In this document: piece by piece, positions 7,262 through 44,931 of the stretch | Layout of the letters: every line of letters begins with the position of its first letter | Position numbering within the stretch: the stretch's first letter is position 1 | From: Bacteroidales bacterium | GTDB lineage: Bacteria; Bacteroidota; Bacteroidia; Bacteroidales; WCHB1-69 | NCBI GenBank assembly: GCA_017540505.1 | Contig: JAFYAW010000017.1 | Span: 6,476-70,475, forward strand | Length of the DNA: 64,000 nucleotides | Direction of reading: 5' to 3' | The notes under the pieces: model-generated | Seen by the model: only the letters and a program-made list of their open reading frames with translations | Database searches by the model: none | What the model was told of the DNA's origin: nothing | Position numbers and translations under genes: made by a program

Positions 7262-8356
7262 ATGCAGAAGAGAATAATCATACTTTTAACAGCAGTGATT
7301 TCCGTGCTCACCATGCGCGTGAATGCGCAGGACGCGATGTTTTCGCAGTTCTATGCCAATCCGCTTTACCTGAATCCGGCCTTTGCAGGCTCAAATGTTT
7401 GTCCTCGTATCTCATTGAATTTCAGGGATCAATGGCCGAGTATGCAGGGAACGTTCATCTCCAGCACCGCCTCTTTTGACGAGCATTTCGACAAGATTTC
7501 CGGCGGTGTGGGCTTGCTCCTGTTTCAGGACCGTGCCGGCGAGAACGGCGGCTCCATCAACACTTATGGCATCAGCCCCATGTATGCCTTCAAGGCGAAA
7601 GTGAGCAAGAAATTCACCCTCCGGTTGGCCGTGCAGGCGGACTTCCAGACCAAGCAGCTGAATTGGGATAACCTCGTCTTCGGCGACATGATCGACCCGC
7701 GCTATGGTGTCGTTTATCAGACCAGCGAGAACCACGGTTCTCTCAGCCGCTGGAATTTCGGCCTTTCTGCAGGCCTCATGGGTTACACACCGCATTTCTA
7801 CTTCGGCTATGCTGCCCATCATATCGTGACTGCCTCTTTGAGCGGAAATGAAGGTTTCAGTTTTCTGAATGACAATGACGGAAACAATATGTATGATATG
7901 AACCCTGTGAAACATACGGTTCACGTGGGTGCCCACTTCGACTTGAAACGCAAAAGTAAAATCGACCATACCTTCGGCGATGTCTCCATCAGTCCGAATT
8001 TCATCTGGCAGCACCAGAGACCGTTCAACTATTTCAATACGGGTCTTTACTTGAATTTCTATCCTTTCACGGTGGGTGCCTGGTACCGTTGCGCTCCGAT
8101 GTACACTTATACCTATACCACGGTGGAAGACGGGCAAGAGAAGACCCATACCGAGAAATATGGCTTGTCTGATGCCGTTATCGTGATGTTCGGTGTGGAG
8201 TACAATTGGCTTAAAGTCGCCTATTCCTACGATTTTACTGTCGGACAGCTTGCCAATGTGGCTACGGGCGGTGCTCACGAGGTCTCCTTGCAGTTCCTCC
8301 TGCCGTGTCCTGAGAAACACAAGGCTATCAAGGATTTGAACTGTCCTTCATTCTAA
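7262..8356 (+). CDS. PorP/SprF-family T9SS membrane protein
   Basis: MQKRIIILLTAVISVLTMRVNAQDAMFSQFYANPLYLNPAFAGS is the family-defining N-terminus (signal peptide followed by FSQ(F/Y)..NP...NPA(F/Y)AG). ATG 7262 is preferred over the track's GTG at 7256. Confidence 0.8.
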   Translation: MQKRIIILLTAVISVLTMRVNAQDAMFSQFYANPLYLNPAFAGSNVCPRISLNFRDQWPSMQGTFISSTASFDEHFDKISGGVGLLLFQDRAGENGGSINTYGISPMYAFKAKVSKKFTLRLAVQADFQTKQLNWDNLVFGDMIDPRYGVVYQTSENHGSLSRWNFGLSAGLMGYTPHFYFGYAAHHIVTASLSGNEGFSFLNDNDGNNMYDMNPVKHTVHVGAHFDLKRKSKIDHTFGDVSISPNFIWQHQRPFNYFNTGLYLNFYPFTVGAWYRCAPMYTYTYTTVEDGQEKTHTEKYGLSDAVIVMFGVEYNWLKVAYSYDFTVGQLANVATGGAHEVSLQFLLPCPEKHKAIKDLNCPSF

Positions 8357-8399
8357 TTTCGCATTTAACATTTTAACAAGATTATAAAACATCAAAACA

Positions 8400-9890
8400 A
8401 TGAATAAGTCAACAAAATTAACAGGTCTGTTTATCCTCTGTGCTCTCCTCGTGACGATGTCTTCCTGCAAGAAGGAGACCTCCCCGACCACAGGATGGAA
8501 TTATAACGATGCCAAAAACGGCGGGTTCGAGGTGGCTGCTTTTGAAGAACAGGCTACAGGTCCCGGCCTTGTGTTCATTGAAGGCGGTTCCTTCGTGATG
8601 GGTGCCATGGAAGAGGATGTGATGAAGGATTGGAACAACAACCCCCGCAGGGTTTCCGTCGCCTCTTTCTATATGGACGAATGCGAAATCTCCAACTTGG
8701 ACTACCGCGAATACCTCTACTGGCTGGAGCGCGTCTTCGTGCCGCAGGATTTGAAAGTGGTTTATGACAACGCTCTTCCCGATGAGAATGTTTGGCGCGA
8801 CCGCCTCGGCTATAATGAGTCGGATGTGGAATACTATTTCCGTCATCCCGCTTACGCCAAATATCCCGTTGTGGGTGTCAACTGGCTTCAGGCCACCAAT
8901 TACGCCGCCTGGCGTACCGACCGTGTGAACGAGCAGATCCTCGTTGACCGCGGCTATGTGGAGTTTGCCGAAACCCCGACGGCGGAAGGTTATTTCAACA
9001 CCGACGCCTATCTGACATACGAAACCTACGAGGCTGAAGGAGAGAAACGTCTCCGCTACATCTCTTCCGGCGAGTATCGCAACGTGAAGATGGAAGACGG
9101 CATCCTGCTGCCCAAGTACCGTCTGCCGACCGAGGCCGAATGGGAGTATGCCGCTCTTGGCTTGGTGGGCAACACCCTCAACGAGCGCGTCCTCGAACGC
9201 AAGGTCTATCCGTGGAACGGCCAACAGCTCCGTACCGAGGATAAGAAATTCTATGGCGATTTCATGGCTAACGGCCGCCGTGGTCGTGGCGACTACATGG
9301 GTGTGGCCAGCTCTCTGAATGACGCAAGCTTCAAAACGGCAGAAGTCAAATCCTTCTGGCCCAACGACTACGGCTTGTACCACATGGCCGGCAACGTCTC
9401 CGAATGGGTGATGGATGTCTATAGACAAAGCTCTCACGATGACGTGACCGAATACAACCCCTTCCGTGGTAACTACTTCGAGACAAAGAAGCTGCTGGAA
9501 GACGGTACTGTGGCCGAACGTGACAGCGTGGGTAAAATCCCGATGGTGCCCGTCTCCGACTTCAAGAACGACAGAAGACGCAACTACCGCGCCGCCGACA
9601 ACAAGAACTACTTGGATGGCGACTGGCAGTCGTTGCAGGACATCGACAGCTGGACGAATGCCACCTCGAACACGGAGGCCACCGACCAGATGTACCGCAA
9701 GCTCAACGACAACTACGCCTACTCGCTCGTCAGCGACCACGCCCGCGTCTATAAGGGCGGTTCCTGGAAGGATATCCCGTATTACTTCGCTCCCGGCTCA
9801 AGACGCTATATGGACGAGGACGAAGCTACGGACTATATCGGCTTCCGCTGCGCCATGGCTCGCGTGGGCTCCCAGGTGAAAGGAAAATAA
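8400..9890 (+). CDS. gldJ: Gliding-motility/T9SS lipoprotein GldJ (FGE-sulfatase/SUMF1 fold)
   Basis: 496 aa with a lipobox (LVTMSSC). TGWNYNDAKNGGFEV...PGLVFIEGGSFVMG...DWNNNPRRVSVASFYMDE...RHPAYAKYPVVGVNWLQA..WRTDRVNE closely follows the GldJ pattern. The porV-porU-gldJ neighbourhood matches F. johnsoniae. No porL/M/N follow, which argues against PorK. Confidence 0.75.
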   Translation: MNKSTKLTGLFILCALLVTMSSCKKETSPTTGWNYNDAKNGGFEVAAFEEQATGPGLVFIEGGSFVMGAMEEDVMKDWNNNPRRVSVASFYMDECEISNLDYREYLYWLERVFVPQDLKVVYDNALPDENVWRDRLGYNESDVEYYFRHPAYAKYPVVGVNWLQATNYAAWRTDRVNEQILVDRGYVEFAETPTAEGYFNTDAYLTYETYEAEGEKRLRYISSGEYRNVKMEDGILLPKYRLPTEAEWEYAALGLVGNTLNERVLERKVYPWNGQQLRTEDKKFYGDFMANGRRGRGDYMGVASSLNDASFKTAEVKSFWPNDYGLYHMAGNVSEWVMDVYRQSSHDDVTEYNPFRGNYFETKKLLEDGTVAERDSVGKIPMVPVSDFKNDRRRNYRAADNKNYLDGDWQSLQDIDSWTNATSNTEATDQMYRKLNDNYAYSLVSDHARVYKGGSWKDIPYYFAPGSRRYMDEDEATDYIGFRCAMARVGSQVKGK

Positions 9891-9920
9891 TCCCCATCTA
9901 TATATTATATATGGTATAAC

Positions 9921-9950
9921 AAAAAGAACCGCCGAAAAGCGGTTCTTTTT
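9921..9950. terminator. Bidirectional hairpin terminator between convergent gldJ and the META gene
   Basis: AAAAAGAACCGC-cgaaaa-GCGGTTCTTTTT: a 12-bp perfect stem whose A and T runs give a U-tail in either direction. Confidence 0.7.
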
Positions 9951-9974
9951 GTTTCAAGGGTGATGCCTGTTGGA

Positions 9975-10409
9975 TTATTTTTCAACGCCTTCGAATTTCA
10001 TAATCTCCTTTTTCCCGGAATAGAGAGTGAGATTCTTGCCGTCGATGACAAAATTGTTGATGTCTTTTCGGATAGCTCCCATTACGGCTTTCTCAATCTC
10101 CATGTTCGGACATAGGCGTTTGGTCGCGCTGCCGTATTCGATCTCGATCTTCTGTTTTTTCTGGTAATAAGTTCCGAAGAAGATGTTGCAGCCCAAGTTT
10201 CCGTTGTATTGGCCTGTCGTGTCGAAGATGATGTACGGCTTCACTTGAACGGGATATTTGTTTGTCTCCAGTTCCCGGCCTTCGATGGAGACCAAGTTCC
10301 AGCGGGTGCCTTGCAGAGGGAGATTGTCCGTGGAGGTTACCGATTTGTTTGTCTTGCATCCGCCCAAACAGAGAAGGACGAACAGAAAAATGGATAGTTG
10401 GATTTTCAT
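9975..10409 (-). CDS. META-domain (HslJ-like) lipoprotein
   Basis: The internal start MKIQLSIFLFVLLCLGGCKT gives a lipoprotein signal. LQGTRWNLVSIEG...GNLGCNIFFGTY is the META domain signature. The track's longer ORF (to 10706) overlaps engB and is rejected. Confidence 0.7.
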   Translation of the reverse strand: MKIQLSIFLFVLLCLGGCKTNKSVTSTDNLPLQGTRWNLVSIEGRELETNKYPVQVKPYIIFDTTGQYNGNLGCNIFFGTYYQKKQKIEIEYGSATKRLCPNMEIEKAVMGAIRKDINNFVIDGKNLTLYSGKKEIMKFEGVEK

Positions 10410-10410
10410 G

Positions 10411-11028
10411 TCAGATAATGGAATTGGGTTTATTATACTGTTGATTGATTTGTTCGATATATTGGAGAATCTCTTCTTTCCCTTTCTTGGTTTCGGCGGA
10501 GGAAACGAAGGTGGGGGGCAGCGTCTCCCAGGTTTCCAGCAGGCGGTTCTTAAAGCGTTGCACATGGCTCTGTATCTTGCCGGATGAGAGCTTGTCGGCT
10601 TTGGTGAAGATGATGGCGAAAGGGATACCCTGCTCGCCGAGGTTGTCAATGAAGTCAAGGTCGATGGTTTGCGGCTCGATGCGCGAGTCCACCAGCACGA
10701 AGACAACCTGCAGGTTCTCGCGGTACAGGAGGTAGCCGCTGATCATCTTCTGCCATTTGTCGCGCATGGCTTTCGAGATGCTGGCGTAGCCGTAGCCGGG
10801 GAGGTCCACCAGATACCAATTTTTGTTGATAAGGAAGTGGTTGACGGTCTGTGTTTTACCTGGTTTGGATGATGTCTTGGCCAGCTTGCTGTTATTGACC
10901 AGCATGTTGATGAGGGATGATTTCCCCACATTAGAGCGGCCGATGAAGGCGTATTCCGGCAGATGGGCCTCGGGACACTGCCGCCAGTCGGCGACGCTTT
11001 GCAGGAAGGTGGCACTTTTGATGATCAT
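10411..11028 (-). CDS. engB: Ribosome-biogenesis GTPase EngB/YihA/YsxC
   Basis: 205 aa. G1 is GRSNVGKSSLIN, and DLPGYGYA and TKADK complete the typical EngB set. Confidence 0.9.
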   Translation of the reverse strand: MIIKSATFLQSVADWRQCPEAHLPEYAFIGRSNVGKSSLINMLVNNSKLAKTSSKPGKTQTVNHFLINKNWYLVDLPGYGYASISKAMRDKWQKMISGYLLYRENLQVVFVLVDSRIEPQTIDLDFIDNLGEQGIPFAIIFTKADKLSSGKIQSHVQRFKNRLLETWETLPPTFVSSAETKKGKEEILQYIEQINQQYNKPNSII

Positions 11029-11034
11029 ATCCGG

Positions 11035-12333
11035 TTATCTTCGGGTGAGCCAGTCGTTGGGGTTGAGGTTGGAACTGTTGCGCCAGATCTCGAAATGCAG
11101 CTCGTAGGTGTTGGAGGAGACATTCTTGGCCACGGTGCCGATAGTCTGCTTGGTGGAAACCTTGGCTCCTTTGGAGACGTTGACGTTGGCCAGGTTCTGA
11201 TAGACGCTGATGTATTCGCCGTGTCGGATCATGACCACCTTGGTGCCCATGATGTCCATGATGCTGGTCACCTCGCCTTCGAAGACGGCACGCACGGGCG
11301 CGCCTGCGTCGGTGAGGATGTCGATGCCGCGGTTCTCAATGGTCACCGACGGTACGTCGGGATGCGCGTAGTTGCCGTAGTCGCCCACCTTGGCACCCTT
11401 GGCTACGGGCCAGGGCAACCGCCCCTTGTTGTTGATGAAGGAGGTGTTGAGGGTCTTCTCTTCGGGAGTCATGGTGATGGTGGCCGTGCTGCGCGAAGAG
11501 GTGGTAGTCTTGCTGGAGGTGGTGGTGGAAGTGCTGGGTTTGCTACTGCCTTTAGTGTTGGCCTTCCGCTGGTTGGCGGCGGCGATCTCCGCCTCAATGG
11601 CCCGCTTGATGGCGGCGTCCAACTCCTTGCGCTTCTTCTGCTTGGCTTTCAGGTCGGCGGCCAGCTGCTGCGACTGCTTTTTCAGCTGCTCCGCATTCCG
11701 CGTCTTCTCCCGCCGGTCACTCTCCAACTTCTTAATCTCCGTCTCCTTGCCGGACAACAGGTTCAGCTTTTCGTTCTTCAGAGCGATGATCTCCTCGTTT
11801 TTCTGCTTCAGCTCCTGCTGGGTCTGGTCGATCTTGTCGGCCTGCTCCTTCACGTTCTTGGAGAAAAGGGTGAAGAAACGGAAACGCCGGAACATCTGCG
11901 AAAAATCGTCGGAGGCCAGAATGAAGGTCACCTTGTCCATCAGCCGCCGGTTGCGATAGGCCATATAGACCACTTGGGCGTAGTCGGATTTCATGTACTC
12001 CAGCTTTTTCTGGAGCTGGGCAATCATCTGCTGGTTGAGCTCCTGCTGCTCCTCCATCTGCATGATCTCGTTGTTGAGGGCGGTGATCAGCTTCTCGCGG
12101 TTGCTGATCTGCTGGCGCAGAACGGCAATCTGCTGTAAGGAGGCCTTCTGGTTTTTCTCCGTCTTCTTGAGCAGACTTTGCGTGTTGGCAATCTCGTTTT
12201 CGATTTTCTGTTTGTCCTTTTTCAGCTGGCTGCTGCTCTTGGTCTGCGCAAACGCACCTTGAACCCATAGCAGAGGTACCATCATGAGAATCAAAAAGAT
12301 ATGTTTTAACGAAGGAGAGGAATTCTTCGGCAT
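11035..12333 (-). CDS. M23 peptidoglycan DD-metalloendopeptidase family protein with coiled-coil N-terminal half (EnvC-like)
   Basis: 432 aa: signal peptide, a long K/E/Q-rich coiled-coil, a Ser/Thr-rich linker (SSKPSTSTTTSSKTTTSSRSTATIT), then an M23 core (GIDILTDAGAPVRAVFEGEV...VMIRHGEYISVYQNL...ELHFEIW). Confidence 0.85.
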   Translation of the reverse strand: MPKNSSPSLKHIFLILMMVPLLWVQGAFAQTKSSSQLKKDKQKIENEIANTQSLLKKTEKNQKASLQQIAVLRQQISNREKLITALNNEIMQMEEQQELNQQMIAQLQKKLEYMKSDYAQVVYMAYRNRRLMDKVTFILASDDFSQMFRRFRFFTLFSKNVKEQADKIDQTQQELKQKNEEIIALKNEKLNLLSGKETEIKKLESDRREKTRNAEQLKKQSQQLAADLKAKQKKRKELDAAIKRAIEAEIAAANQRKANTKGSSKPSTSTTTSSKTTTSSRSTATITMTPEEKTLNTSFINNKGRLPWPVAKGAKVGDYGNYAHPDVPSVTIENRGIDILTDAGAPVRAVFEGEVTSIMDIMGTKVVMIRHGEYISVYQNLANVNVSKGAKVSTKQTIGTVAKNVSSNTYELHFEIWRNSSNLNPNDWLTRR

Positions 12334-36336: not shown

Positions 36337-36801
36337 ATGGTAATCGGTTATACGACAGGTGTTTACGACCTGTTTCACATTGGGCACTTGACCCTTCTCA
36401 AAAACGCAAAAGCACTTTGCGACAAATTGATTGTTGGTGTCACTGTGGATGAATTGGTCCTTTATAAAGGCAAACATGCGATGATTCCATACTCTGACAG
36501 GGCAGAAATAGTGCGTAGCATAAAATATGTGGACGCGGTGGTGCCCCAGTACGATATGGACAAACTCACCGCTTGTAAAAAATTGGGGGCTAGCATCCTT
36601 TTTGTAGGAGATGACTGGTATGGAACAGAAAAGTGGCAAAAATATGAGGAAGATTTCGCCAAAGAGGGCATTAGGATTGTATATTTTCCATACACGAAGG
36701 GCATTTCATCAACAAAGATTACGGAGGCATTGAAGGCTGCCAGAGGTTGGTCTGCAAATGATCCCACTTCTTTGTCCGGAGAAAATCATTTAAACGTATA
36801 A
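36337..36801 (+). CDS. Cytidylyltransferase, glycerol-3-phosphate cytidylyltransferase (TagD/TarD)-like
   Basis: 154 aa. GYTTGVYDLFHIGHLTLLKNAK has the HxGH motif, and a later ISST(K) motif is present, as in the TagD family. Confidence 0.8.
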   Translation: MVIGYTTGVYDLFHIGHLTLLKNAKALCDKLIVGVTVDELVLYKGKHAMIPYSDRAEIVRSIKYVDAVVPQYDMDKLTACKKLGASILFVGDDWYGTEKWQKYEEDFAKEGIRIVYFPYTKGISSTKITEALKAARGWSANDPTSLSGENHLNV

Positions 36802-36803
36802 AG

Positions 36804-37847
36804 ATGGTCGATAAAAGTTATTGCATGAGTTCGTATCTTTCACTGCGATATGTGGAAGATGATGACAAGCAGTTCTGCGAAGGTTTACACCATCAAGTGT
36901 ATAAACAGCAGCCTTTAGATAGAAAGGTTTTCGTTTCTGACGCTCATGACATAGACATAGCCTTGCGTAATGTTTTTAGAAGAGTGTCTCACGAAAAGTT
37001 GGGGATGCTGTTGTCAGGAGGCATGGACAGCTCGATACTTGCCTCGTATATGCCAGAAGGTGCTGACGCATACACATTCAGATTCCTTGGAGGCAAATAC
37101 CAAAGCGATGAGTTGAAACGTGCAGAATATTATGCCCAGTATTATCACCTGAATCTGCACTATGTGGACATTGACTGGAATACGGTAGAACAAAATGTGG
37201 ACAAGATAATGCGGCACAAGGGCGCGCCTGTTCATTCTATAGAGCCTCAGCTCTATGCTGCCGCCATACAAGCCAAGCAGGACGGTGTAACCATGCTTGT
37301 TATTGGTGATGCCGCTGATTATGTGTTTGGCGGCATGGACGGGCTGCTGTCCCAAAACTGGAGTTATGATCAATATGTGAAGAGAACCATATACGTGAAC
37401 CCAGCCGATGTCCTTTACGAACCGTACGATATGAATTATCTCTTTGAGCGCTATCGGATTGGCAAGAACAGCATTGATTATCTGCGTTTCTATGATGAAA
37501 TAGTAACCGATGAAAGTTATGCATCCTACGAAAATGCATTTGAGACGGCAGAAATGGATTTCATAGATCCGTACGAACTGCTGAAAATGGCCAAACCTCT
37601 CGATTTGGGCCGAATCAGGAACGGTGACACAAAATATCTGATCCGGGATCTGTTCCGGATGAAGTATCCTGAGACTGCCGTACCCCTCAAGCAGCCGATG
37701 CCCCGTCCTGTTGATGCGTATTTTGCGAACTGGGAGGGACCAAAACGCAAGGAATTCAAAACAGATATTAACATCAACAACTACAGCGGAAACCAGAAAT
37801 GGCTTCTCTACTGTCTGGAAAGATTTTTGAACATCTACGAGAAATAA
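36804..37847 (+). CDS. Asparagine-synthetase-domain (PP-loop adenylating) protein lacking the glutaminase domain, copy 1
   Basis: 347 aa. PP-loop is LLSGGMDSSILASYM, and VIGDAADYVFGGMD corresponds to the AsnB GEGADE..GGY motif. There is no N-terminal Cys/Ntn domain. Confidence 0.75.
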   Translation: MVDKSYCMSSYLSLRYVEDDDKQFCEGLHHQVYKQQPLDRKVFVSDAHDIDIALRNVFRRVSHEKLGMLLSGGMDSSILASYMPEGADAYTFRFLGGKYQSDELKRAEYYAQYYHLNLHYVDIDWNTVEQNVDKIMRHKGAPVHSIEPQLYAAAIQAKQDGVTMLVIGDAADYVFGGMDGLLSQNWSYDQYVKRTIYVNPADVLYEPYDMNYLFERYRIGKNSIDYLRFYDEIVTDESYASYENAFETAEMDFIDPYELLKMAKPLDLGRIRNGDTKYLIRDLFRMKYPETAVPLKQPMPRPVDAYFANWEGPKRKEFKTDININNYSGNQKWLLYCLERFLNIYEK

Positions 37848-37859
37848 GAAAACAGCAAT

Positions 37860-38903
37860 ATGGTAAATAAAGATTTTTGCTTGAGTTCATACATGGCCTT
37901 CCGCTATATTTGGAAGGATGGCGTTGATTTTGTTGAAGGTTTCCAGCATAAGAACTTCCGACCCGTCGCCGAAGAAGATCGCATTCCTGTAAGGACATCG
38001 GAAGATATCGACCGGGAGATTCAGAAACAGTTCGATGCTTTATATGCCAAATACAGAAACATCGGCATTCTTCTCAGCGGGGGCATGGACAGCGCGAACT
38101 TGGCTGCTTATCTGAAACCTGGCAGCCATGCCTACACATTCAACTCTACATCCGGAGTGTTTGATGCTGATGTGGAACGCGCTAAAAAGTACTGCAAGAA
38201 GTTCCAGCTGAAGCATCATTTGATTGATATTACGATGGAAGACTACCAGAAGTATGCCCCTATAGTGATGCGTCATAAGTTTGCTCCTGTTCATTCTATT
38301 GAGCCACAGATATATAAGGCTGCTGAAATGGCAAAGAAGGATGGTGTACAGTTGATGATAGTGGGCGAAAGCGCAGACTTGATTTTTGGAGGCATGGACA
38401 AACTCATCAGTCCTATCTGGACTTTTGACGCATTTGTCAAACGTTATACCTTTTTAGATCCTAAACTGGTTCTTGCAAATCCTGTTGACCAGTCAGAACT
38501 GTTTGAAAGATACCATCAAGGGGAAGAAGGTATCGATGTGCTAAAATTCATGGATGAGGTGTTCTCTATTGAAAGTAGTAGTTCCTATCTTAACGCCTTT
38601 GGAGCTGCGTGGATGCCCTATTATGATCCGTATGCCAAACTTGTCATGGCAGAACCATTAGACATGAACAAAGTGCGCAATGGAGAACCTAAATATCTGG
38701 TTCGTGGACTATATGCTATCAAATATCCTGAATTAGAAATCCCATTCAAGATACCGATGCCGCGTCCGGTGGATGCAGTGTTTAAAGACTGGTCTGGTCC
38801 TAAACGCCTGGAGTTTAGAAAAGACATTGACATGACCTCTTTGACAGGTAATCAAAAGTGGCAGCTTTGGTGTGCGGAGCAGTTTCTTAACATGATAGAT
38901 TAA
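37860..38903 (+). CDS. Asparagine-synthetase-domain (PP-loop adenylating) protein lacking the glutaminase domain, copy 2 (paralogue)
   Basis: Also exactly 347 aa and collinear with copy 1: LLSGGMDSANLAAYL, MRHK.APVHSIEPQ.Y.AA, VGESADLIFGGMD, and PMPRPVDA.F..W.GPKR.EF. Confidence 0.75.
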   Translation: MVNKDFCLSSYMAFRYIWKDGVDFVEGFQHKNFRPVAEEDRIPVRTSEDIDREIQKQFDALYAKYRNIGILLSGGMDSANLAAYLKPGSHAYTFNSTSGVFDADVERAKKYCKKFQLKHHLIDITMEDYQKYAPIVMRHKFAPVHSIEPQIYKAAEMAKKDGVQLMIVGESADLIFGGMDKLISPIWTFDAFVKRYTFLDPKLVLANPVDQSELFERYHQGEEGIDVLKFMDEVFSIESSSSYLNAFGAAWMPYYDPYAKLVMAEPLDMNKVRNGEPKYLVRGLYAIKYPELEIPFKIPMPRPVDAVFKDWSGPKRLEFRKDIDMTSLTGNQKWQLWCAEQFLNMID

Positions 38904-38912
38904 GTAATAATC

Positions 38913-39728
38913 ATGAGAGAACTAAGTACAGCGGAATTAAAAAAAGTGATGCTTGATTCATTGCTGGTCGTGGACGATTTTTGTCGCAAAAATGGTATTG
39001 AATATTTTTTAGAGGGTGGTACCAGTATCGGGGCAGTGCGTCACAAAGGATATATACCCTGGGATGATGATATTGACATCGCAATGACACGACCAAATTA
39101 TGAGCGATTTATTCACACCTTTGGGGGCTATTGTGATCATTTGAGTCTATTTGCTCCAGAGTTGGATGAAAACTTCTATGCTTCGTATGCAAATGTGTGT
39201 GATAATCGCACTGTGCTTTTTGAAAATTTATTTGAGCATCGTGGTTATGATGTTGGTGTGAAGATTGATATATTTCCAATTGATGGTTGTGAAGACGATA
39301 TGCGAGTTTGTAAGCGGTGGCATGTTTTGGTAAGAGTGTTGTCTAACATTCTTTCACGTCGGAATCGCAATATGCGATATGTCTGGCATCATAATAAGTG
39401 GAATTTTTTCACATGTGCTATCGTACGGTTGCTTACATTGCCAATAAAATATTGCACGATTATGCATTGGTTTTTGCGCATTGTTAAAAGATGTGACTAC
39501 ACTAAAGCCAATTATGCATATCATGCCTCTTTGCCGTATAAAAAAGTGACTCGATGTCCCAAACAGGTTTGGGAAGAATATATTGATATGGATTTCGAAG
39601 GATATAAGGTGCGGAATCTAAAGCATTTTGATACGCATTTACGTGCAATATTTGGAGATTACATGCAATTGCCTCCTGAACCAGAGCGTGTATGTCACCA
39701 TGGTTTTACCGCTTATTGGAAAGATTGA
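38913..39728 (+). CDS. LicD-family phosphotransferase (phosphocholine/polyol-phosphate transferase)
   Basis: 271 aa. [28 protein letters not shown] is the LicD signature. Confidence 0.8.
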
Positions 39729-39730
39729 TT

Positions 39731-40882
39731 ATGAAAAAAATACTTCTTGTTTTCGGAACGCGACCCGAGGCCATAAAGATGTGCCCATTGGTCAAAGAAC
39801 TTCAAAAATTCCCTTCTGATTTTGAAACCATTGTCTGCGTCACAGGTCAGCATCGCGAAATGCTTGACCAGGTATTGAAAATTTTTGAAGTCAAACCTGA
39901 TTATGACCTCAACATCATGAAACATGGTCAGGATTTGTACGATGTCACTTCAAAAGTCCTTCTCGGAATGAGGGATGTTTTGAAGGAGGTTCGGCCAGAT
40001 GTGGTGTTGGTTCACGGAGATACCACGACATCAACCGCCGCCGCACTTGCTGCTTTTTACCAGCAGATCCCTGTAGGACACGTTGAAGCCGGACTCCGAA
40101 CCCACAACATTTACTCGCCATGGCCGGAAGAGATGAACCGACAGATAACCAGTAGAATAGCAACTTTCAATTTTGCTCCGACACCACTTTCAAAGGATAA
40201 TCTTCTGAAAGAAAACGTTGGTGAAGATAGCATTACTGTTACAGGAAATACTGTTATTGATGCGTTGTATTGGGTTGTGAACAAAATAAAAAGCGACGAA
40301 ATCATTTCCGACGAGTTGAAATCCCTCCTTAAAGATGCCGGTTATGACACTGATAGACTTTCCGCTGGCAAGAGACTTGTGTTGATAACGGGACACCGCC
40401 GTGAAAATTTTGGAAGCGGTTTTATAAGTATGTGTACTGCGATAAAAGATCTGACCCGGAAATTTCCTGATGTGGATTTCGTTTACCCCATGCATTTGAA
40501 TCCGAATGTTAGGAAACCCATTCATGAGGTGTTTGGAGATGATTTGACAGACTTGGGCAATATGTTTTTCATCGAGCCGCTGGAGTATCTTTCGTTTGTT
40601 TATCTGATGGAAAAATCAACAATAGTCTTGACCGACAGTGGCGGCATTCAGGAAGAGGCGCCTGGATTAGGGAAGCCCGTTCTTGTCATGCGTGACACAA
40701 CGGAACGACCCGAAGCGGTTACAGCAGGCACTGTTAAACTTGTGGGGACGGATTATGACGCCATCGTAAATAATGTTTCAGAATTGCTGGAAAACAAAGC
40801 CGAATATGAAAAAATGAGCAAGGCTGTGAATCCTTATGGTGATGGGATGGCATGCGAAAGAATTGTAAAATATTTAAAATAA
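39731..40882 (+). CDS. wecB: UDP-N-acetylglucosamine 2-epimerase (non-hydrolysing)
   Basis: MKKILLVFGTRPEAIKMCPL...VCVTGQHREMLDQVL...VHGDTTTS...HVEAGLRT...TDSGGIQEEAP.LGKPVLVMR..TERPE. ATG 39731 follows 2 nt after the licD stop. The track's upstream start overlaps licD and is rejected. Confidence 0.92.
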   Translation: MKKILLVFGTRPEAIKMCPLVKELQKFPSDFETIVCVTGQHREMLDQVLKIFEVKPDYDLNIMKHGQDLYDVTSKVLLGMRDVLKEVRPDVVLVHGDTTTSTAAALAAFYQQIPVGHVEAGLRTHNIYSPWPEEMNRQITSRIATFNFAPTPLSKDNLLKENVGEDSITVTGNTVIDALYWVVNKIKSDEIISDELKSLLKDAGYDTDRLSAGKRLVLITGHRRENFGSGFISMCTAIKDLTRKFPDVDFVYPMHLNPNVRKPIHEVFGDDLTDLGNMFFIEPLEYLSFVYLMEKSTIVLTDSGGIQEEAPGLGKPVLVMRDTTERPEAVTAGTVKLVGTDYDAIVNNVSELLENKAEYEKMSKAVNPYGDGMACERIVKYLK

Positions 40883-40946
40883 ATTTTTTATATATGAATA
40901 TATTTGTTAATAAACGGGGGGAGGTAAAGGTCGCTCTAATTTGAGG

Positions 40947-41486
40947 ATGTTTTTAAAAGCTGATAAATATGCGCTTGGCAAAAATCGGATATGCCCCAAA
41001 GTAATTGGCGATGATATTTGGAAATTCGAGCGAGCACTTCGTTATCACGAGTTTTATATAAACAGAGGAAAGAGATATAGTATAAGAAAATTTTTTTGGG
41101 CATATAGGCATAGGAAATTAGGGATAAAATTGGGTTTTCAGATTCCTTGTAATGTATTTGGGAAGGGGCTTCGAATTAATCACTTTGGTTTGATAGTAGT
41201 TAGTCCTAAAGCAAAAATTGGCGATTTCTGTGATATTCATCAAGGTGTGAACATAGGAGAAAATACAGATAAGGAAGCTCCGATTATTGGAAATAATGTG
41301 TGGATAGGCCCTGGAGTAAAAGTATTTGGTAAAATACAAATTGGAAACAATGTAATGATAGGTGCGAATGCTGTTGTAACAAAGAATTTTCCAAATGATG
41401 TGGTGATAATGGGTGTCCCTGCTGAAATAAAAAAGAGGAGTGGTAATATTTATTCTAAAGATATATATTTTAAAAGCGATGCATAG
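40947..41486 (+). CDS. Hexapeptide-repeat O-acetyltransferase (serine acetyltransferase-like, LbH)
   Basis: The N-terminal helical region (ALRYHEFY) is followed by LbH repeats (IGDFCDIHQGVNIG...IGNNVWIGPGVKVFG.IQIGNNVMIGANAVV). Confidence 0.75.
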   Translation: MFLKADKYALGKNRICPKVIGDDIWKFERALRYHEFYINRGKRYSIRKFFWAYRHRKLGIKLGFQIPCNVFGKGLRINHFGLIVVSPKAKIGDFCDIHQGVNIGENTDKEAPIIGNNVWIGPGVKVFGKIQIGNNVMIGANAVVTKNFPNDVVIMGVPAEIKKRSGNIYSKDIYFKSDA

Positions 41487-41532
41487 ATACTAATGCTTTT
41501 TATTTATTAGTATATCAATTATATAAAACTAT

Positions 41533-42255
41533 ATGATACCAAAAATTATTCATTATTGTTGGTTTGGGGGCAACCCATTGCCGGAATTAGCGGTAAAATG
41601 TATTGATAGTTGGAAAAAATTCTGCCCAGACTATCAAATCATCGAGTGGAATGAATCAAACTTCAATTTGCATTATAACGACTACGTATGGGAGGCGTTT
41701 CAGGCAAAGAAGTGGGCTTTTATTACGGATGTTGCCCGATTGTATGCACTAGCCACGTATGGCGGGATATATATGGATACGGATGTGGAAGTGATTAAGC
41801 CATTAGACCCATATCTTGATCATGTAGCTTTTAGTGGTTATGAAAATGAACATGAAATACCCACAGGTATCATGGCTAGTGAAAAAGGAGGAAAATGGGC
41901 GATGGACAACCTGCATTATTATGACAACAAACATTTTTTAAATCAAGACGGATCTTTTGATATGACAACAAATGTTGTTACTCTTACGAATTATATGCTT
42001 CCTCTTGGTTTGAAACAAAATAACACGTATCAGGATTTTCCCGGATTAATAACTTTCTATCCCAAAGATTTTTTCTGCCCAAAATCATATTTGGATGGAA
42101 AGATTTATCTGACAGAAAACACGGTCACAATACATCATTTTGCTGGCAGTTGGCGCTCCACATCAAGCAAGATCAAACATAAGGTTATGAAATTATTGGG
42201 ACCAAGAATTTGTGGATGGTGGGAGAGTGTAAAACAAACTGTAAGGAGCAAATAG
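41533..42255 (+). CDS. Glycosyltransferase family 32 (DXD sugar-binding region)
   Basis: IPKIIHYCWFGG.PLP, ..KKWAFITDVARLYAL..YGGIYMDTDVEV. Confidence 0.8.
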   Translation: MIPKIIHYCWFGGNPLPELAVKCIDSWKKFCPDYQIIEWNESNFNLHYNDYVWEAFQAKKWAFITDVARLYALATYGGIYMDTDVEVIKPLDPYLDHVAFSGYENEHEIPTGIMASEKGGKWAMDNLHYYDNKHFLNQDGSFDMTTNVVTLTNYMLPLGLKQNNTYQDFPGLITFYPKDFFCPKSYLDGKIYLTENTVTIHHFAGSWRSTSSKIKHKVMKLLGPRICGWWESVKQTVRSK

Positions 42256-42257
42256 GG

Positions 42258-42430
42258 TTACTTTCCCAGCAACCCCTTCGTCACATCCCACCGGAACCGG
42301 ATCAGCTTCCAGCCGCGATTGCTTCTGTGAGGTTCCGTTTGGTGCGTCCGCCCTTGCGAGCCTTAGTCCGCTGTTGCCGTCAATAATTGCTTCGGCGATT
42401 CATCGCCTACGTTTCTGGGCCCAACGGAAG
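42258..42430 (-). pseudogene. Decayed 3'-terminal fragment of a GT2 gene homologous to 44932..45834
   Basis: 42258-42317 aligns with 44932-44991 at 53 of 60 positions (manual alignment) and encodes ...RGWKLIRFRWDVTKGLLGK*, against ...RGWKLIQFRWNVTKGLVGK* in the intact gene. Further upstream the similarity continues (AEAII.., LA.A) but with an in-frame stop, a frameshift and indels. Confidence 0.65.
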
Positions 42431-42537
42431 GATGGTGGCATTTTTGTTAGCGACAGGTGTGATGAAACACGGTTTATCGTTAATGTTTGGCGTGTTGGGA
42501 AACCGGCAACCCACACTCGCTAACCAGACGACTTTTG

Positions 42538-43074
42538 TCAGTTGATTTGCATACTCCTTATTAGACCCTCGTTGTCCGCACTATACTGCTTCTGAATCAA
42601 ATAATGTAAACTCTGACGTAAAGCCTTGATTTCAGCATGGTCACCTATAGATCTAATTAAATTCCGAATATCTGGATCATTGTTTGACGAGGTCTTTTTT
42701 GTCCGCTTAGTGAAAGCTTGCAATTCCGACGGGAGATTGAAGTTTTCTGGATTAACTCCAAGATTATTGGCGCACTCCAAAATAAACTGGTCCGTTGCGG
42801 GGTCAACAGTGATTAAGTAATGAGGTAAAGTTTTATGTTTAAAAAACTGTAAATGAGTTGTTTGTGTAATTTTTAAGCAATCTTTCAAATACCCCACTTG
42901 GTCTTTGTCGTTGTCAATAATTCCTATAGCGAACCTGTCATGAAAACTGTTTTTAATCTTTCCTACAACATTGTTGCAACCATGCTGATGATTGACGGTA
43001 CCTTGTATTAGGTACTGTATCAGATTTGTATCAACATAGCATTCAGGAATAACGTTTATATGGTCAATTCTCAT
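42538..43074 (-). CDS. Small Toprim-like protein (E...DxD), partner of the ABC-type ATPase
   Basis: 178 aa from MRIDHINVIPECYVDTNL, with E11 and D54-N-D56 (AIGIIDNDKD). The ATG lies 11 nt inside the upstream ATPase ORF. The Toprim assignment is inferred from motif order only. Confidence 0.6.
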   Translation of the reverse strand: MRIDHINVIPECYVDTNLIQYLIQGTVNHQHGCNNVVGKIKNSFHDRFAIGIIDNDKDQVGYLKDCLKITQTTHLQFFKHKTLPHYLITVDPATDQFILECANNLGVNPENFNLPSELQAFTKRTKKTSSNNDPDIRNLIRSIGDHAEIKALRQSLHYLIQKQYSADNEGLIRSMQIN

Positions 43075-44266
43075 AGGCTTCGAAATTGAAAAACAAGTCA
43101 ACACCATTGTAATATACATCCTGAATGTCCTCCTCGGTGAGTGAGGAAAGCGCATATTGGCCAGACTTTTGAATGGGATGTGTGAAAAAAATGCGAAAAT
43201 CTTTCGGCTTGTCTTTGATGAATTGGTTCAGCACATAAGGACTGTGTGTGGCCACGAACAAAAAATCTCCTTTGTCGCTGTCAGATACATTGTCCACCAA
43301 CCAGTCCACCAGCTGGCACTGGGTGGGCGGGAATAAATTGTCTTCCGGTTCTTCCAAGAATATTTCATTGTGGTTGACCAATAGGAACTGGTTCACTAAC
43401 TTGGTAAACCGCTCATACGCCAGTTGATTTTCGCAGACATACATTGTCGTTCCTAAAACCACAGACCGATTTTGTTCAGATAATGTCACTTTCCCGTTTT
43501 CAATGCGATCAGTAGTTTGAATTCCCTCATGTGCTTTTTGATGAAGTTTTGATGCCAAATTGATCGCTTCATTCTTCTTCTCAAAAGACATAGCAGTAAG
43601 AGATTGTTTTTCATGCTGTTTCCCAAAAAGATAATGTAAATGCATGAACATGGGAACCAACGACTGAATTCCACTGGAACCTTCTGATAATTGAATCGTT
43701 TTGTCATTAGGCAAGACAACGATATCCTTATTGGACAAGGAATCATAATGATAGCTCATTTTAAGATTTAGCACCTCTGATGAAGTGTCCATGGATTTCC
43801 GTGCGATGTCCCAGTCTGTCATAAAATCTAACAAATTGTCGTTTTCCAAGGTCAATTTGCTCCAAGTGGGAATGGTGGCTACCAGGTTTCTGTCAGACGG
43901 GATATAGGAGACTTTCGGGCGCTGATAATCCCACTGCTTTTCTTTCCAAAAAAATGTAAACTTCTGTTCACTGTGGTCATACGAAAATCCCATGTAATCA
44001 GACTCATATGAAATATATGTATCAGGCCAAATGAATCCTTTCATTTTATGGTAGTTCACTAAAATATCCAAAAACCGACTACCCTCTTCGAACTCGCTGG
44101 AAGATTGTGTGAGTTCGATACGTTTTTCCACCCATGAGCAGTAGCATGCGGTCTTCAGCACACAACTCTTGCCGGAACTTTGCATTCCGACTATCACATT
44201 CACCTGCCCCAAGTCAACATCGGCAGCAGAAAGTGGTCCTAAATTTCTTATTTTCAGTCTCTTCAT
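43064..44266 (-). CDS. ABC/SMC-like AAA ATPase (AAA_15/AAA_21-type)
   Basis: 400 aa from MKRLKIRNLGPL. It has Walker A GMQSSGKS, signature-like LSEGSSG, Walker B/D-loop IFLEEPEDNLFP and H-loop ATHSP. Start 44266 is preferred because a -7 box lies between it and the track's upstream ATG. Confidence 0.8.
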   Translation of the reverse strand: MKRLKIRNLGPLSAADVDLGQVNVIVGMQSSGKSCVLKTACYCSWVEKRIELTQSSSEFEEGSRFLDILVNYHKMKGFIWPDTYISYESDYMGFSYDHSEQKFTFFWKEKQWDYQRPKVSYIPSDRNLVATIPTWSKLTLENDNLLDFMTDWDIARKSMDTSSEVLNLKMSYHYDSLSNKDIVVLPNDKTIQLSEGSSGIQSLVPMFMHLHYLFGKQHEKQSLTAMSFEKKNEAINLASKLHQKAHEGIQTTDRIENGKVTLSEQNRSVVLGTTMYVCENQLAYERFTKLVNQFLLVNHNEIFLEEPEDNLFPPTQCQLVDWLVDNVSDSDKGDFLFVATHSPYVLNQFIKDKPKDFRIFFTHPIQKSGQYALSSLTEEDIQDVYYNGVDLFFNFEAYEN

Positions 44267-44286
44267 AGCACTGTGATTAACAGCAG

Positions 44287-44294
44287 CAAAGATA
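44287..44294 (-). promoter_or_regulatory. -7 box (TATCTTTG on the minus strand) for the ATPase/Toprim-like pair
   Basis: caaagata on the plus strand. It lies 20 nt upstream of ATG 44266, in the 68-nt gap after the ORF6N gene. Confidence 0.45.
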
Positions 44295-44334
44295 CATTTT
44301 TCTTCTTTAATCAAAACTGTCACACATTTGAAAT

Positions 44335-44835
44335 TTAATGCAAATTGCAGTGAATATCGAAAGGGCCAGGAACCGCGCTACGACTTCGAATTCTACCTTT
44401 GCCGTCAATAACTAAGAAAGAGTAGGCATCCATAATTCTCACGCTCGCTTCTTCTGCCACATCAGAATGAAGCACGGCACTTAACTGTGCGACACCTTGC
44501 TCTGTAAAAGCATAAGGGCATCTTCTCGCCCCCATCTTCAATGCATCAATCTCTTCCTGTGAGTAAATATTGGAGGTCACAATTTGTGACTTCCAATGCT
44601 CAAACTCTTCCTTTGTCAACTGAAACATAAATCGCTCAGGGAAGCGTCTGATGTTACGTTTCACGGCCTGATTTAACGCCTTTGTAGCCACATGATATAG
44701 AATGGCCAAATCCCTATCCAGCATCACTTGGACGCCTCGGACCATAAATATTCTGGCTTGTATCTCTGCAAGCGATACGGGTTGATTGTCGTGTAGCACA
44801 ACGACTTTTGTTCCATTTGTTCGATTCTCTTTCAT
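44335..44835 (-). CDS. ORF6N (KilA-N-related) DNA-binding domain protein
   Basis: 166 aa. IFMVRGVQVMLDRDLAILYHVATKALNQAVKRNIRRFPERFMFQLTKEE....YAFTEQGVAQLSAVL is the ORF6N signature. Confidence 0.8.
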   Translation of the reverse strand: MKENRTNGTKVVVLHDNQPVSLAEIQARIFMVRGVQVMLDRDLAILYHVATKALNQAVKRNIRRFPERFMFQLTKEEFEHWKSQIVTSNIYSQEEIDALKMGARRCPYAFTEQGVAQLSAVLHSDVAEEASVRIMDAYSFLVIDGKGRIRSRSAVPGPFDIHCNLH

Positions 44836-44839
44836 GGTG

Positions 44840-44847
44840 CAAAAGTA
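44840..44847 (-). promoter_or_regulatory. -7 box (TACTTTTG on the minus strand) 4 nt upstream of the ORF6N ATG
   Basis: caaaagta on the plus strand. The spacing implies a leaderless or near-leaderless transcript. Confidence 0.4.
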
Positions 44848-44931
44848 TAATTTTAATTTTATATAAAAAGATTTTCTATATAAAAAATTAACTTTTGCTT
44901 CAAACTAATGTAGTCAACAGCTGACAACAAA

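Follow-up and report, generated by a model that had tools for sequence, protein, structure and literature searches.

The present analysis concerns two overlapping genes found in a 64,000-nt stretch of contig JAFYAW010000017.1 (GenBank assembly GCA_017540505.1, positions 6,476 to 70,475 of the forward strand), referred to here as the window. The source is an uncultured rumen Bacteroidales bacterium; the GT2, YfhO-like, and AlbA_2 genes of the window are 95%–100% identical to genes of rumen metagenome-assembled genomes (MAGs). Both genes of interest lie on the minus strand. The upstream one encodes a 400-aa ABC ATPase (43064..44266, with its ATG at 44266 and its stop at 43064), and the downstream one encodes a 178-aa partner protein of an unannotated family, a putative effector (42538..43074, from the ATG at 43074 to the stop at 42538). 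The two reading frames share 11 nt (43064..43074), as expected for translationally coupled genes. This arrangement, proposed in a first-pass annotation made from the sequence alone, was confirmed by our reading of the open reading frames (ORFs) and by the alignments of both families. Longer calls, a 419-aa ATPase starting at GTG 44323 and a 205-aa partner starting at ATG 43155, were rejected as over-extensions, because both family alignments begin at the ATGs of the 400-aa and 178-aa forms.

The 400-aa protein contains, in order and where the first-pass annotation had placed them, the four motifs of an ABC ATPase: Walker A (G27-MQSSGKS-34), the signature LSEGSSG (193-199), the Walker B/D-loop segment IFLEEPEDNLFP (302-313), and the H-loop ATHSP (339-343). 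Residues G27, S31, G32, K33, S34, S197, S198, G199, E305, E306, P307, E308, and H341 are invariant in 44 homologues. In Pfam, the protein matched AAA_15 (2.2e-13, 51 bits, cut-off 32.1), and AAA_21 was slightly under the threshold. The top match in PADLOC was PDC-M29A (7.9e-53, 178 bits), with residues 1-348 aligned on profile positions 1-320 of 410; weaker matches were obtained with AriA (4.7e-15, N-terminal), HEC-01A/02A, NsnB, GajA, and PtuA (~5e-8). A profile of the 44 homologues matched two solved proteins in the Protein Data Bank (PDB), GajA (7e-4) and the Thermus TsOLD (3e-3), and a jackhmmer search started from P2 Old pulled in ATPases of the cassette family. The AF2 model (pLDDT 84, pTM 0.86) was compared with solved structures using Foldseek, which returned GajA (2.8e-9), PtuA (8.4e-9), and then the retron Eco8/IA ATPases, Rad50, and SMC heads; the probability was 1.00 for GajA, PtuA, Rad50, and the SMC heads, with TM-scores of 0.44 at most. 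These results establish that the protein is an OLD/GajA/PtuA-like ABC ATPase head that retains its nucleotide-binding motifs and lacks a long coiled coil, in line with the OLD/Gabija/Septu type originally assigned to it; according to the model, it does not stand near any single solved protein. Its final 15 residues, located outside the PDC-M29A match, are strongly conserved (Y385, G388, D390, F392, N394, and E396), and by likeness to the C-termini of PtuA and NsnB, this tail may serve as a dock for the partner. A 412-aa homologue of the ATPase, 24% identical over residues 1-347, was also found in the Microcystis phage Mic1 (L104, 4001-5239), where it is flanked by the genes of an RNA ligase and a DNA adenine methylase and has no small partner downstream.

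The 178-aa partner, scanned as a single protein, gave no match in Pfam, NCBIfam, PADLOC (E ≤ 1), or PHROGs. A word-indexed search recovered 26 relatives, and an exhaustive profile search recovered at least 1042 representatives at 50% identity (E ≤ 1e-3), with 566 at E ≤ 1e-10; most of them are full-length proteins of about 165–200 aa. When two conserved partner peptides were used as scan patterns, a relative was detected in 211 of 185,579 species-representative genomes, overwhelmingly Bacteroidales with a few Chitinophagaceae and Sphingobacteriia. The alignment of 97 diverse members revealed that the sole invariant columns are D54 and D56, while E11, C12, D15, T16, H29, H80, and K126 are conserved in at least 90% of them; the three acidic residues singled out by the earlier annotation (E11, D54, and D56) are thus among the best conserved of the family. 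The AF2 model of the partner (pLDDT 92.9, pTM 0.88) comprises a strand (8-10), a helix (13-23), a one-residue bridge at about position 27, a helix (33-43), a strand (49-54), a short helix, a hairpin (66-71 and 75-80), a strand (85-90), and a helical bundle (94-175), that is, the order b1-a1-(b2)-a2-b3, hairpin, b4, and helical bundle. Searches of PDB sequences with the partner profiles yielded only non-collinear noise (ferredoxin, CopM, and coiled coils), and the consensus sequences of the subfamilies had no relevant match in Pfam or PADLOC. When the 97 members were scanned at E ≤ 10, DUF4276 was matched by two (E ≥ 0.027), HEC-01B by three, PD-T4-4_B by one, and PDC-M03B by one (4.5e-5), all at noise level.

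The ATPase gene is directly upstream of the partner gene in all 79 evaluable loci; in seven others, the contig stops before the upstream region. Among 75 homologous loci, the stop and start codons overlap by 4 nt (ATGA) in 48 and by 1 nt in 9, the remainder being separated by 0–7 nt. Moreover, the pairwise divergences of both proteins correlate (Mantel r 0.80, a value reached in 0 of 500 permutations), although linkage alone gives such co-divergence, so it is not proof of contact. We conclude that the pair is an obligate, translationally coupled two-gene unit. Distant relatives of the ATPase (L105, L103, L106, L014, L084, and L017) are accompanied, at the same position, by other small partners, several of which appear by eye to carry a D...E-x-K motif of the PD-(D/E)xK-like kind. 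The system in L105, located on a Persicobacter plasmid, is a true PDC-M29: its ATPase matched PDC-M29A at 5.7e-147 (488 bits over positions 1-408 of 410) and its partner matched PDC-M29B at 5.7e-48; on its two sides are an ORF resembling a DNA methyltransferase and the gene of a 686-aa protein judged DUF262-like by eye. This exchange of partners on a shared ATPase chassis makes the best indirect case for the 178-aa protein being an effector. Two further plasmids, the Bacteroides finegoldii "plasmid 67" (L103, 3998-5702) and a Muribaculaceae MOBV plasmid (L106, 3001-4700), encode PDC-M29A-like ATPases (~1e-50) whose small partners show a CDxLIL...FVELKG motif and are passed over by the PDC-M29B models; the B. 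finegoldii pair is within a polysaccharide locus, on the same strand as the surrounding glycosyltransferase genes and an O-antigen ligase gene.

The boundaries of the segment carrying the pair were defined by comparison with a near-conspecific locus, L156, in which the YfhO-like gene is 99% and the AlbA_2 gene 100% identical to those of the window. Homology between the two ends at window position 44424 and returns at 42400, delimiting a cassette of 2,023 nt (42401..44423, minus strand, GC 0.40) that includes 157 nt of upstream sequence, the ATPase and partner genes, and a 137-nt tail. The cassette stands in place of the last 525 nt of an ORF6N gene, with the break at about codon 137. The truncated gene (44335..44835, minus strand, 166 aa) matched ORF6N in Pfam (2.7e-31) and PDC-S05 in PADLOC (1.4e-48), and its product shares 98% identity with residues 1 to ~138 of the ORF6N protein of 312 aa in L156, homology being lost beyond that point. 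In L156, the junction is occupied by two full-length ORF6N genes (8002-8925 and 9165-10103, encoding 307 and 312 aa), and the pair is absent. In a related species (L161), 2 nt separate GT2 from the convergent GT32, and the YfhO-like gene directly adjoins GT2, without AlbA_2, ORF6N, or the pair; from its sequence, this junction is the empty site. The presence/absence polymorphism that had been anticipated at the GT32/GT2 junction was therefore found. Also sustained is the earlier view that the pair has no biosynthetic role in the glycan locus; it is part of a discrete insert missing from closely related genomes. Around 15 metagenomic contigs with identical GT2 or GT32 proteins span the site, and all of them carry the cassette. 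On the basis of these genome comparisons, the cassette is considered a horizontally acquired mobile unit, and the three alleles of this junction (cassette-present, ORF6N-only, and empty) represent a clean natural experiment that shows its mobility and exact boundaries.

Several repeats were noticed at this junction. A 13-nt direct repeat, TTATTGACGGCAA, is present in exactly two identical copies in the window (0.11 expected), the left one (44399..44411, minus strand) 12 nt inside the cassette and the right one (42374..42386, minus strand) in the native flank, where it is also found in L156. This repeat may have been the recombination core, with the left junction also involving the 525-nt deletion of ORF6N. 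A 62-nt repeat next to the GT32 stop codon (42259..42320) is 89% identical to the real 3' end of GT2 (44933..44994), and everything from ORF6N through the ATPase and partner genes to the tail lies between the two copies. A strain variant (L095) contains an extra ORF6N gene (10674-11597) flanked by copies of the intergenic segment. Given the 62-nt copy of the GT2 end and this extra gene, the GT2/GT32 junction can be regarded as a recombination hotspot. The antirepressor-like ORF6N genes, present in one or two copies in close relatives and each following a GT2 3' end and a copy of the spacer, suggest tandem duplication or cassette insertion. The ends of the cassette have no terminal inverted repeats (the longest match is 5 nt), and an Rfam scan of 42000-45000 found nothing. 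The tail (42401-42537, 137 nt) is unusually GC-rich for intergenic DNA, the whole spacer (42256-42537) having a GC content of 0.54, and a plus-strand ORF of 52 aa (42387-42545) resembles a fragment of a hydrophobic protein, possibly left over from the donor locus.

The Bacteroidetes −7 promoter consensus is TAnnTTTG, and the first-pass annotation had indicated a box of this type upstream of the pair. The box, TATCTTTG, is present at 44287..44294 (minus strand), 20 nt before the ATG of the ATPase gene and inside the cassette; since TAnnTTTG is only mildly enriched in the window (45 observed, 31 expected), this single box is plausible but only suggestive. The same annotation described the pair as AT-richer than the backbone, and this is correct with respect to the window as a whole (GC 0.397 versus 0.501, the 5.6th percentile of equal-sized windows). 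It does not extend to the neighbouring glycan genes, because GT32 (0.375) and the hexapeptide transferase gene (0.341) are equally or more AT-rich.

Beyond the cassette, the locus shows other signs of rearrangement. The AlbA_2 gene (45839-47329, minus strand), located between the YfhO-like gene and GT2, encodes a 496-aa protein with SLFN_AlbA_2, HATPase_c_4, and Fic-like_C domains, and this Schlafen-like gene gave partial PADLOC matches to Argonaute-associated models (1.6e-18) and to PDC-S50. Because the YfhO-like gene abuts GT2 in most related species, AlbA_2 represents a second independent insertion. On the other side, a plus-strand glycan operon (36337-42255) converges on the cassette. Compared with L095, L100, and L096, this operon differs among strains in which GT2, ORF6N, the ATPase, and the partner are identical, containing either Asn-synthase paralogues and the hexapeptide transferase gene or Fe-ADH and TPP-enzyme genes, which points to recombination within the glycan locus.

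We also surveyed the genes adjacent to homologous pairs, as the first-pass annotation had recommended. The clearest defence context was that of L003, in which the pair is located between Avs2 (3e-101) and Dsr2 (1e-255). In L069 (3159-4870, an Alistipes timonensis MAG), a 384-aa ATPase and a 184-aa RloB-like protein with the motifs FCEGKTE, FDLD, and SNPCVEYW are encoded immediately upstream of the homologous pair, so that two ABC-ATPase modules occur in tandem. In L235, the pair is followed by a DarT fragment, an insertion sequence (IS), and an AlbA_2 fragment, and in the window itself, the cassette lies inside an ORF6N/PDC-S05 gene, two genes from the inserted AlbA_2/Schlafen-like gene. A PADLOC scan of two genes on each side, pooled over 30 non-redundant loci, gave strong matches to Dsr2, Avs2, LmuA, PDC-S01, PDC-S05, PDC-M56A/B, mad3 (three proteins), and mad8 (two proteins). 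We estimate that a defence-like neighbour is present in about a quarter of the surveyed loci, which is above expectation. Most copies are nevertheless solo, the same pattern that was reported for embedded candidates by Payne et al. The window copy and four of its six nearest-relative contexts (L001, L003, L235, and L237) are in or at the end of polysaccharide loci, and some of these four copies are on the same strand as the transferase genes. A family-wide tie to glycan loci was rejected, given that two or more glycan-like genes were present within 5 kb in only 4 of the 68 loci; the glycan link is local to the clade of the window and probably reflects recombination-prone loci and not glycan synthesis.

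The first-pass annotation proposed that the partner is Toprim-like. In support of this idea, E11 follows the strand 8-10, and D54 and D56 are at the end of the strand 49-54, and the order strand-E, helix, strand, helix, strand-DxD agrees with the Toprim core described previously (PMC12065111). The catalytic set of Class 2 OLD proteins includes E400, E404, D455, D457, E508, and K562 (PMC6755086), and six residues of the partner are collinear with it (E11/E400, D15/E404, D54/D455, D56/D457, D95/E508, and K126/K562), with D95 opening the first helix after the last strand and K126 in the C-terminal helical bundle. The catalytic C-terminal region of Class 2 OLD, of ~205 aa, consists of an alpha/beta core of ~115 aa and a helical domain of ~90 aa (PMC6755086). 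Since the six residues share the OLD catalytic order, the partner core may be a strongly diverged Toprim in which a beta-hairpin replaces helix 3. The best match of the partner, both by hhalign and in a block-wise profile test, was that of HYLITVDPATDQFIL, which includes b4 and PAxD, with the RloB hallmark LLLSNPCVEYWFLL (SNPCVEYW), at rank 1 and z 4.4. The claim that the partner is miniature, or much shorter than known partners, did not hold, considering the 184-aa RloB-like protein of L069 and the size of the OLD catalytic region.

Taken together, these observations slightly favour a reading of 42401-44423 as a two-component conflict module of the ABC-ATPase-plus-effector kind that was acquired horizontally, its partner being most likely a metal-dependent nuclease. 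Judging from the sequence evidence, a role of the pair in phage defence is likely but unproven. In the mechanism that we propose, an oligomer of the ATPase would bind the partner and hold it inactive, the ATPase would sense a phage-derived cue, and ATP binding or hydrolysis would then activate or release the partner. An effector restrained by an ATPase is thought to operate in PARIS (AriA/AriB), Septu (PtuA/PtuB), and Menshen (PMC11464382, PMC12065111). The partner would act as the effector, most likely cleaving nucleic acid as a metal-dependent nuclease, through a candidate cluster in which strand 1 is followed by E11 and D15 and strand 3 by D54 and D56, with D95 opening the helix behind the last strand and K126 coming from the helical bundle. 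Either DNA or tRNA might be its target, and the result would be abortive infection or breakdown of the invader nucleic acid.

Several results weigh against this proposal. No profile of a nuclease family in Pfam, NCBIfam, PADLOC, or PHROGs matched the partner, the 97 members scanned gave hits at noise level only, and in particular, no Toprim, DUF4435, DUF4276, or RloB profile matched the consensus sequences. The partner model had no significant Foldseek neighbour (TM ≤ 0.29; best E 0.33 in the PDB and 0.048 in BFVD), and its top 50 matches included no Toprim chain, the Toprim fold being a three-layer alpha/beta arrangement with its strands in the order 2-1-3-4. When the partner was aligned by hhalign with 41 RloB-like sequences related to the L069 protein (Neff 3.7), the probability was 1.2%, and with the C-terminal region of P2 Old, for which the homologue search gave only five fragments, it was 0.7%. 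In the block-wise profile test, the E block ranked 4th and the DxD block 3rd, and only the block after b4 ranked 1st. With regard to the biological role, the Pfam analysis of 120 neighbours yielded 167 different, mostly unrelated families, most loci being among ordinary genes, and a tblastn search with the partner against the plasmid and phage collections gave no match; as mentioned, the co-divergence of the two proteins does not demonstrate that they interact. Finally, HEC-01, an ABC ATPase with a Toprim partner and the nearest tested analogue, protected against none of the phages tried, so a function of the cassette cannot be assumed. True Toprims superpose on merely 20–26 C-alpha pairs (PMC11464382), and for this reason, the silence of Foldseek weakens the Toprim assignment without deciding it. 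The Toprim-like character of the partner is supported by the collinear motifs only, and has no statistical support from profiles, hhalign, or Foldseek. From the sequence, we judge the chances that the partner is a diverged Toprim to be roughly even, and those that it is a metal-dependent nuclease of some alpha/beta type to be somewhat higher.

The lack of any Foldseek neighbour in the PDB or BFVD for a confident model, together with the failure of all Toprim profile and profile–profile comparisons, would also be explained if the pair were a defence system with a small protein other than a nuclease. This protein might serve as a sensor or an adaptor, or as an effector with other chemistry, such as a phosphatase-like or receiver-like acidic pocket or nucleotide hydrolysis; its alpha/beta-plus-helical fold would then be new and bear no relation to Toprim. 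Receiver domains and HAD-type enzymes likewise carry acidic pairs following their first and third strands, and nothing in the OLD site corresponds to the conserved H29, H80, and C12. We nevertheless regard this as unlikely, given that six conserved residues of the partner follow the order of the OLD catalytic set, the b4-PAxD segment has the RloB SNPCxExW as its top match, and sister ATPases are paired with small nuclease-like partners. A different explanation is that the cassette is a selfish addiction module of the toxin–antitoxin (TA) type, in which a small toxin is kept in check by the ATPase and loss of the module kills the cell. A compact cassette of two overlapping genes, inserted in an accessory gene and absent from relatives, would fit this idea, as would the solo position of most copies among housekeeping genes, the PIN TA pair near the L001 copy, and the Pfam name of the related AAA_21, "putative AbiEii toxin, Type IV TA system". 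In contrast, the ABC ATPases of the same class with known roles (GajA, PtuA, AriA, and OLD) are defence sensors or regulators, and some homologues are in clear defence islands, which makes pure addiction improbable; addiction and defence by abortive infection can, moreover, coexist.

A housekeeping function, either in DNA repair or chromosome maintenance (RecF/RecN/Rad50-like) or in glycan synthesis, appears highly improbable. Rad50, SMC, and RecN heads are among the Foldseek matches of the ATPase, and the window copy and several near relatives are in or at the end of polysaccharide loci; however, the family is patchy (211 of 185,579 genomes), its presence varies among close relatives with an empty site at hand, clusters of glycan-like genes accompany only the 4 of 68 loci already mentioned, and neither protein has a glycan-enzyme domain in Pfam. 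Returning to the two-component conflict module, we put forward only tentatively, as a doubtful extension, that the 178-aa protein founds a new effector family, nearly restricted to Bacteroidota, that is not Toprim, and that the pair is a new ABC-ATPase-gated defence system. As a 2-kb cassette with its own promoter, the system would enter accessory genes, of which ORF6N is an example, also at the edges of capsule/glycan loci in rumen Bacteroidales.

As far as the libraries and searchable literature go, novelty lies in the partner family, in the absence of any sequence or structural neighbour for it, and in the exact boundaries of the cassette. ABC-ATPase-plus-effector modules (OLD, Gabija, PARIS, Septu, and Menshen) feature prominently in bacterial immunity and owe their diversity to the effectors. 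The partner family is large, tightly conserved, unmatched in the profile libraries searched, and lacking structural neighbours. Should it prove to be an effector, it would bring a new catalytic module to the ABC-ATPase class; should it prove to be a diverged Toprim, it would widen the known range of that fold. The family is concentrated in gut and rumen Bacteroidales, a group in which few defence systems have been tested and in which phage–host dynamics matter for microbiome ecology.

In comparison with known systems, the pair shares with Septu, formed by the ABC ATPase PtuA and the HNH protein PtuB, the combination of an ATPase with a small partner, a nuclease in Septu and a putative one here, and PtuA gives the best TM-scores to the ATPase model (0.42–0.44); in contrast, the partner has no HNH match and the PtuA profile matches are weak. 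AbiL/RloA-RloB and HEC-01, in which an AAA_15/21 ATPase is accompanied by a small partner of the Toprim superfamily, resemble the pair in gene order and partner size, as illustrated by the RloB-like protein of L069. The best local profile match of the partner is the post-b4 SNPCxExW of RloB, and weak matches to HEC-01B/DUF4276 were seen in 2–3 of the 97 members; it differs from RloB in the low hhalign probability, in the spacing from E to DxD (43 versus 55), and in the beta-hairpin that replaces helix 3. The closest solved ATPase folds and sequences are those of OLD and Gabija GajA, and the Walker B (E/D)EPE is as in GajA and Old. The size and two-part layout of the partner also recall the catalytic C-terminal region of OLD, with collinear E-x3-D, DxD, acidic-helix, and Lys positions. 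Unlike OLD and GajA, the window encodes two polypeptides, the ATPase ending at residue 400 without a Toprim domain, and the partner has no Toprim_OLD profile or fold match; unlike Gabija and Class 2 OLD, there is no UvrD/GajB helicase neighbour, the adjacent genes being ORF6N and GT32.

PARIS, which comprises the ABC ATPase AriA and the DUF4435/Toprim protein AriB (class 4 OLD-like), has the same tandem of an ATPase and a separate small effector, a weak AriA match to the ATPase, and a similar proposed logic of sequestering and then releasing the effector. In this case, the differences are the absence of a DUF4435 match in the partner, the position of AriA outside the top 50 Foldseek matches, and the size of AriB (~35 kDa, versus ~20 kDa for the partner). 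The scans of PADLOC, Pfam, NCBIfam, and PHROGs placed the pair outside any named, validated system; its description as undescribed must be qualified, in that the ATPase distantly matches PDC-M29A, the ATPase of a PADLOC candidate whose true partner differs. PDC-M29, proposed by "guilt-by-embedding" (Payne et al. 2024 preprint), is mentioned in no paper that we found. The window partner has no PDC-M29B match at E ≤ 1, and PDC-M29B is absent among the 16 families matched by the 97 members at E ≤ 10; PDC-M29B has a CDxLL...FVELK motif, PD-(D/E)xK-like by eye, and belongs to a different family. In addition, the ATPase misses the last ~90 positions of the PDC-M29A profile. On the other hand, PDC-M29A is its best profile match, and PDC-M29 is likewise found in Bacteroidota and likewise consists of an ABC ATPase of ~400 aa followed by an overlapping or abutting partner of ~165–180 aa. 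The pair thus belongs to a known kind of system, an ABC ATPase with a small effector, and its ATPase is a distant relative, not a core member, of PDC-M29.

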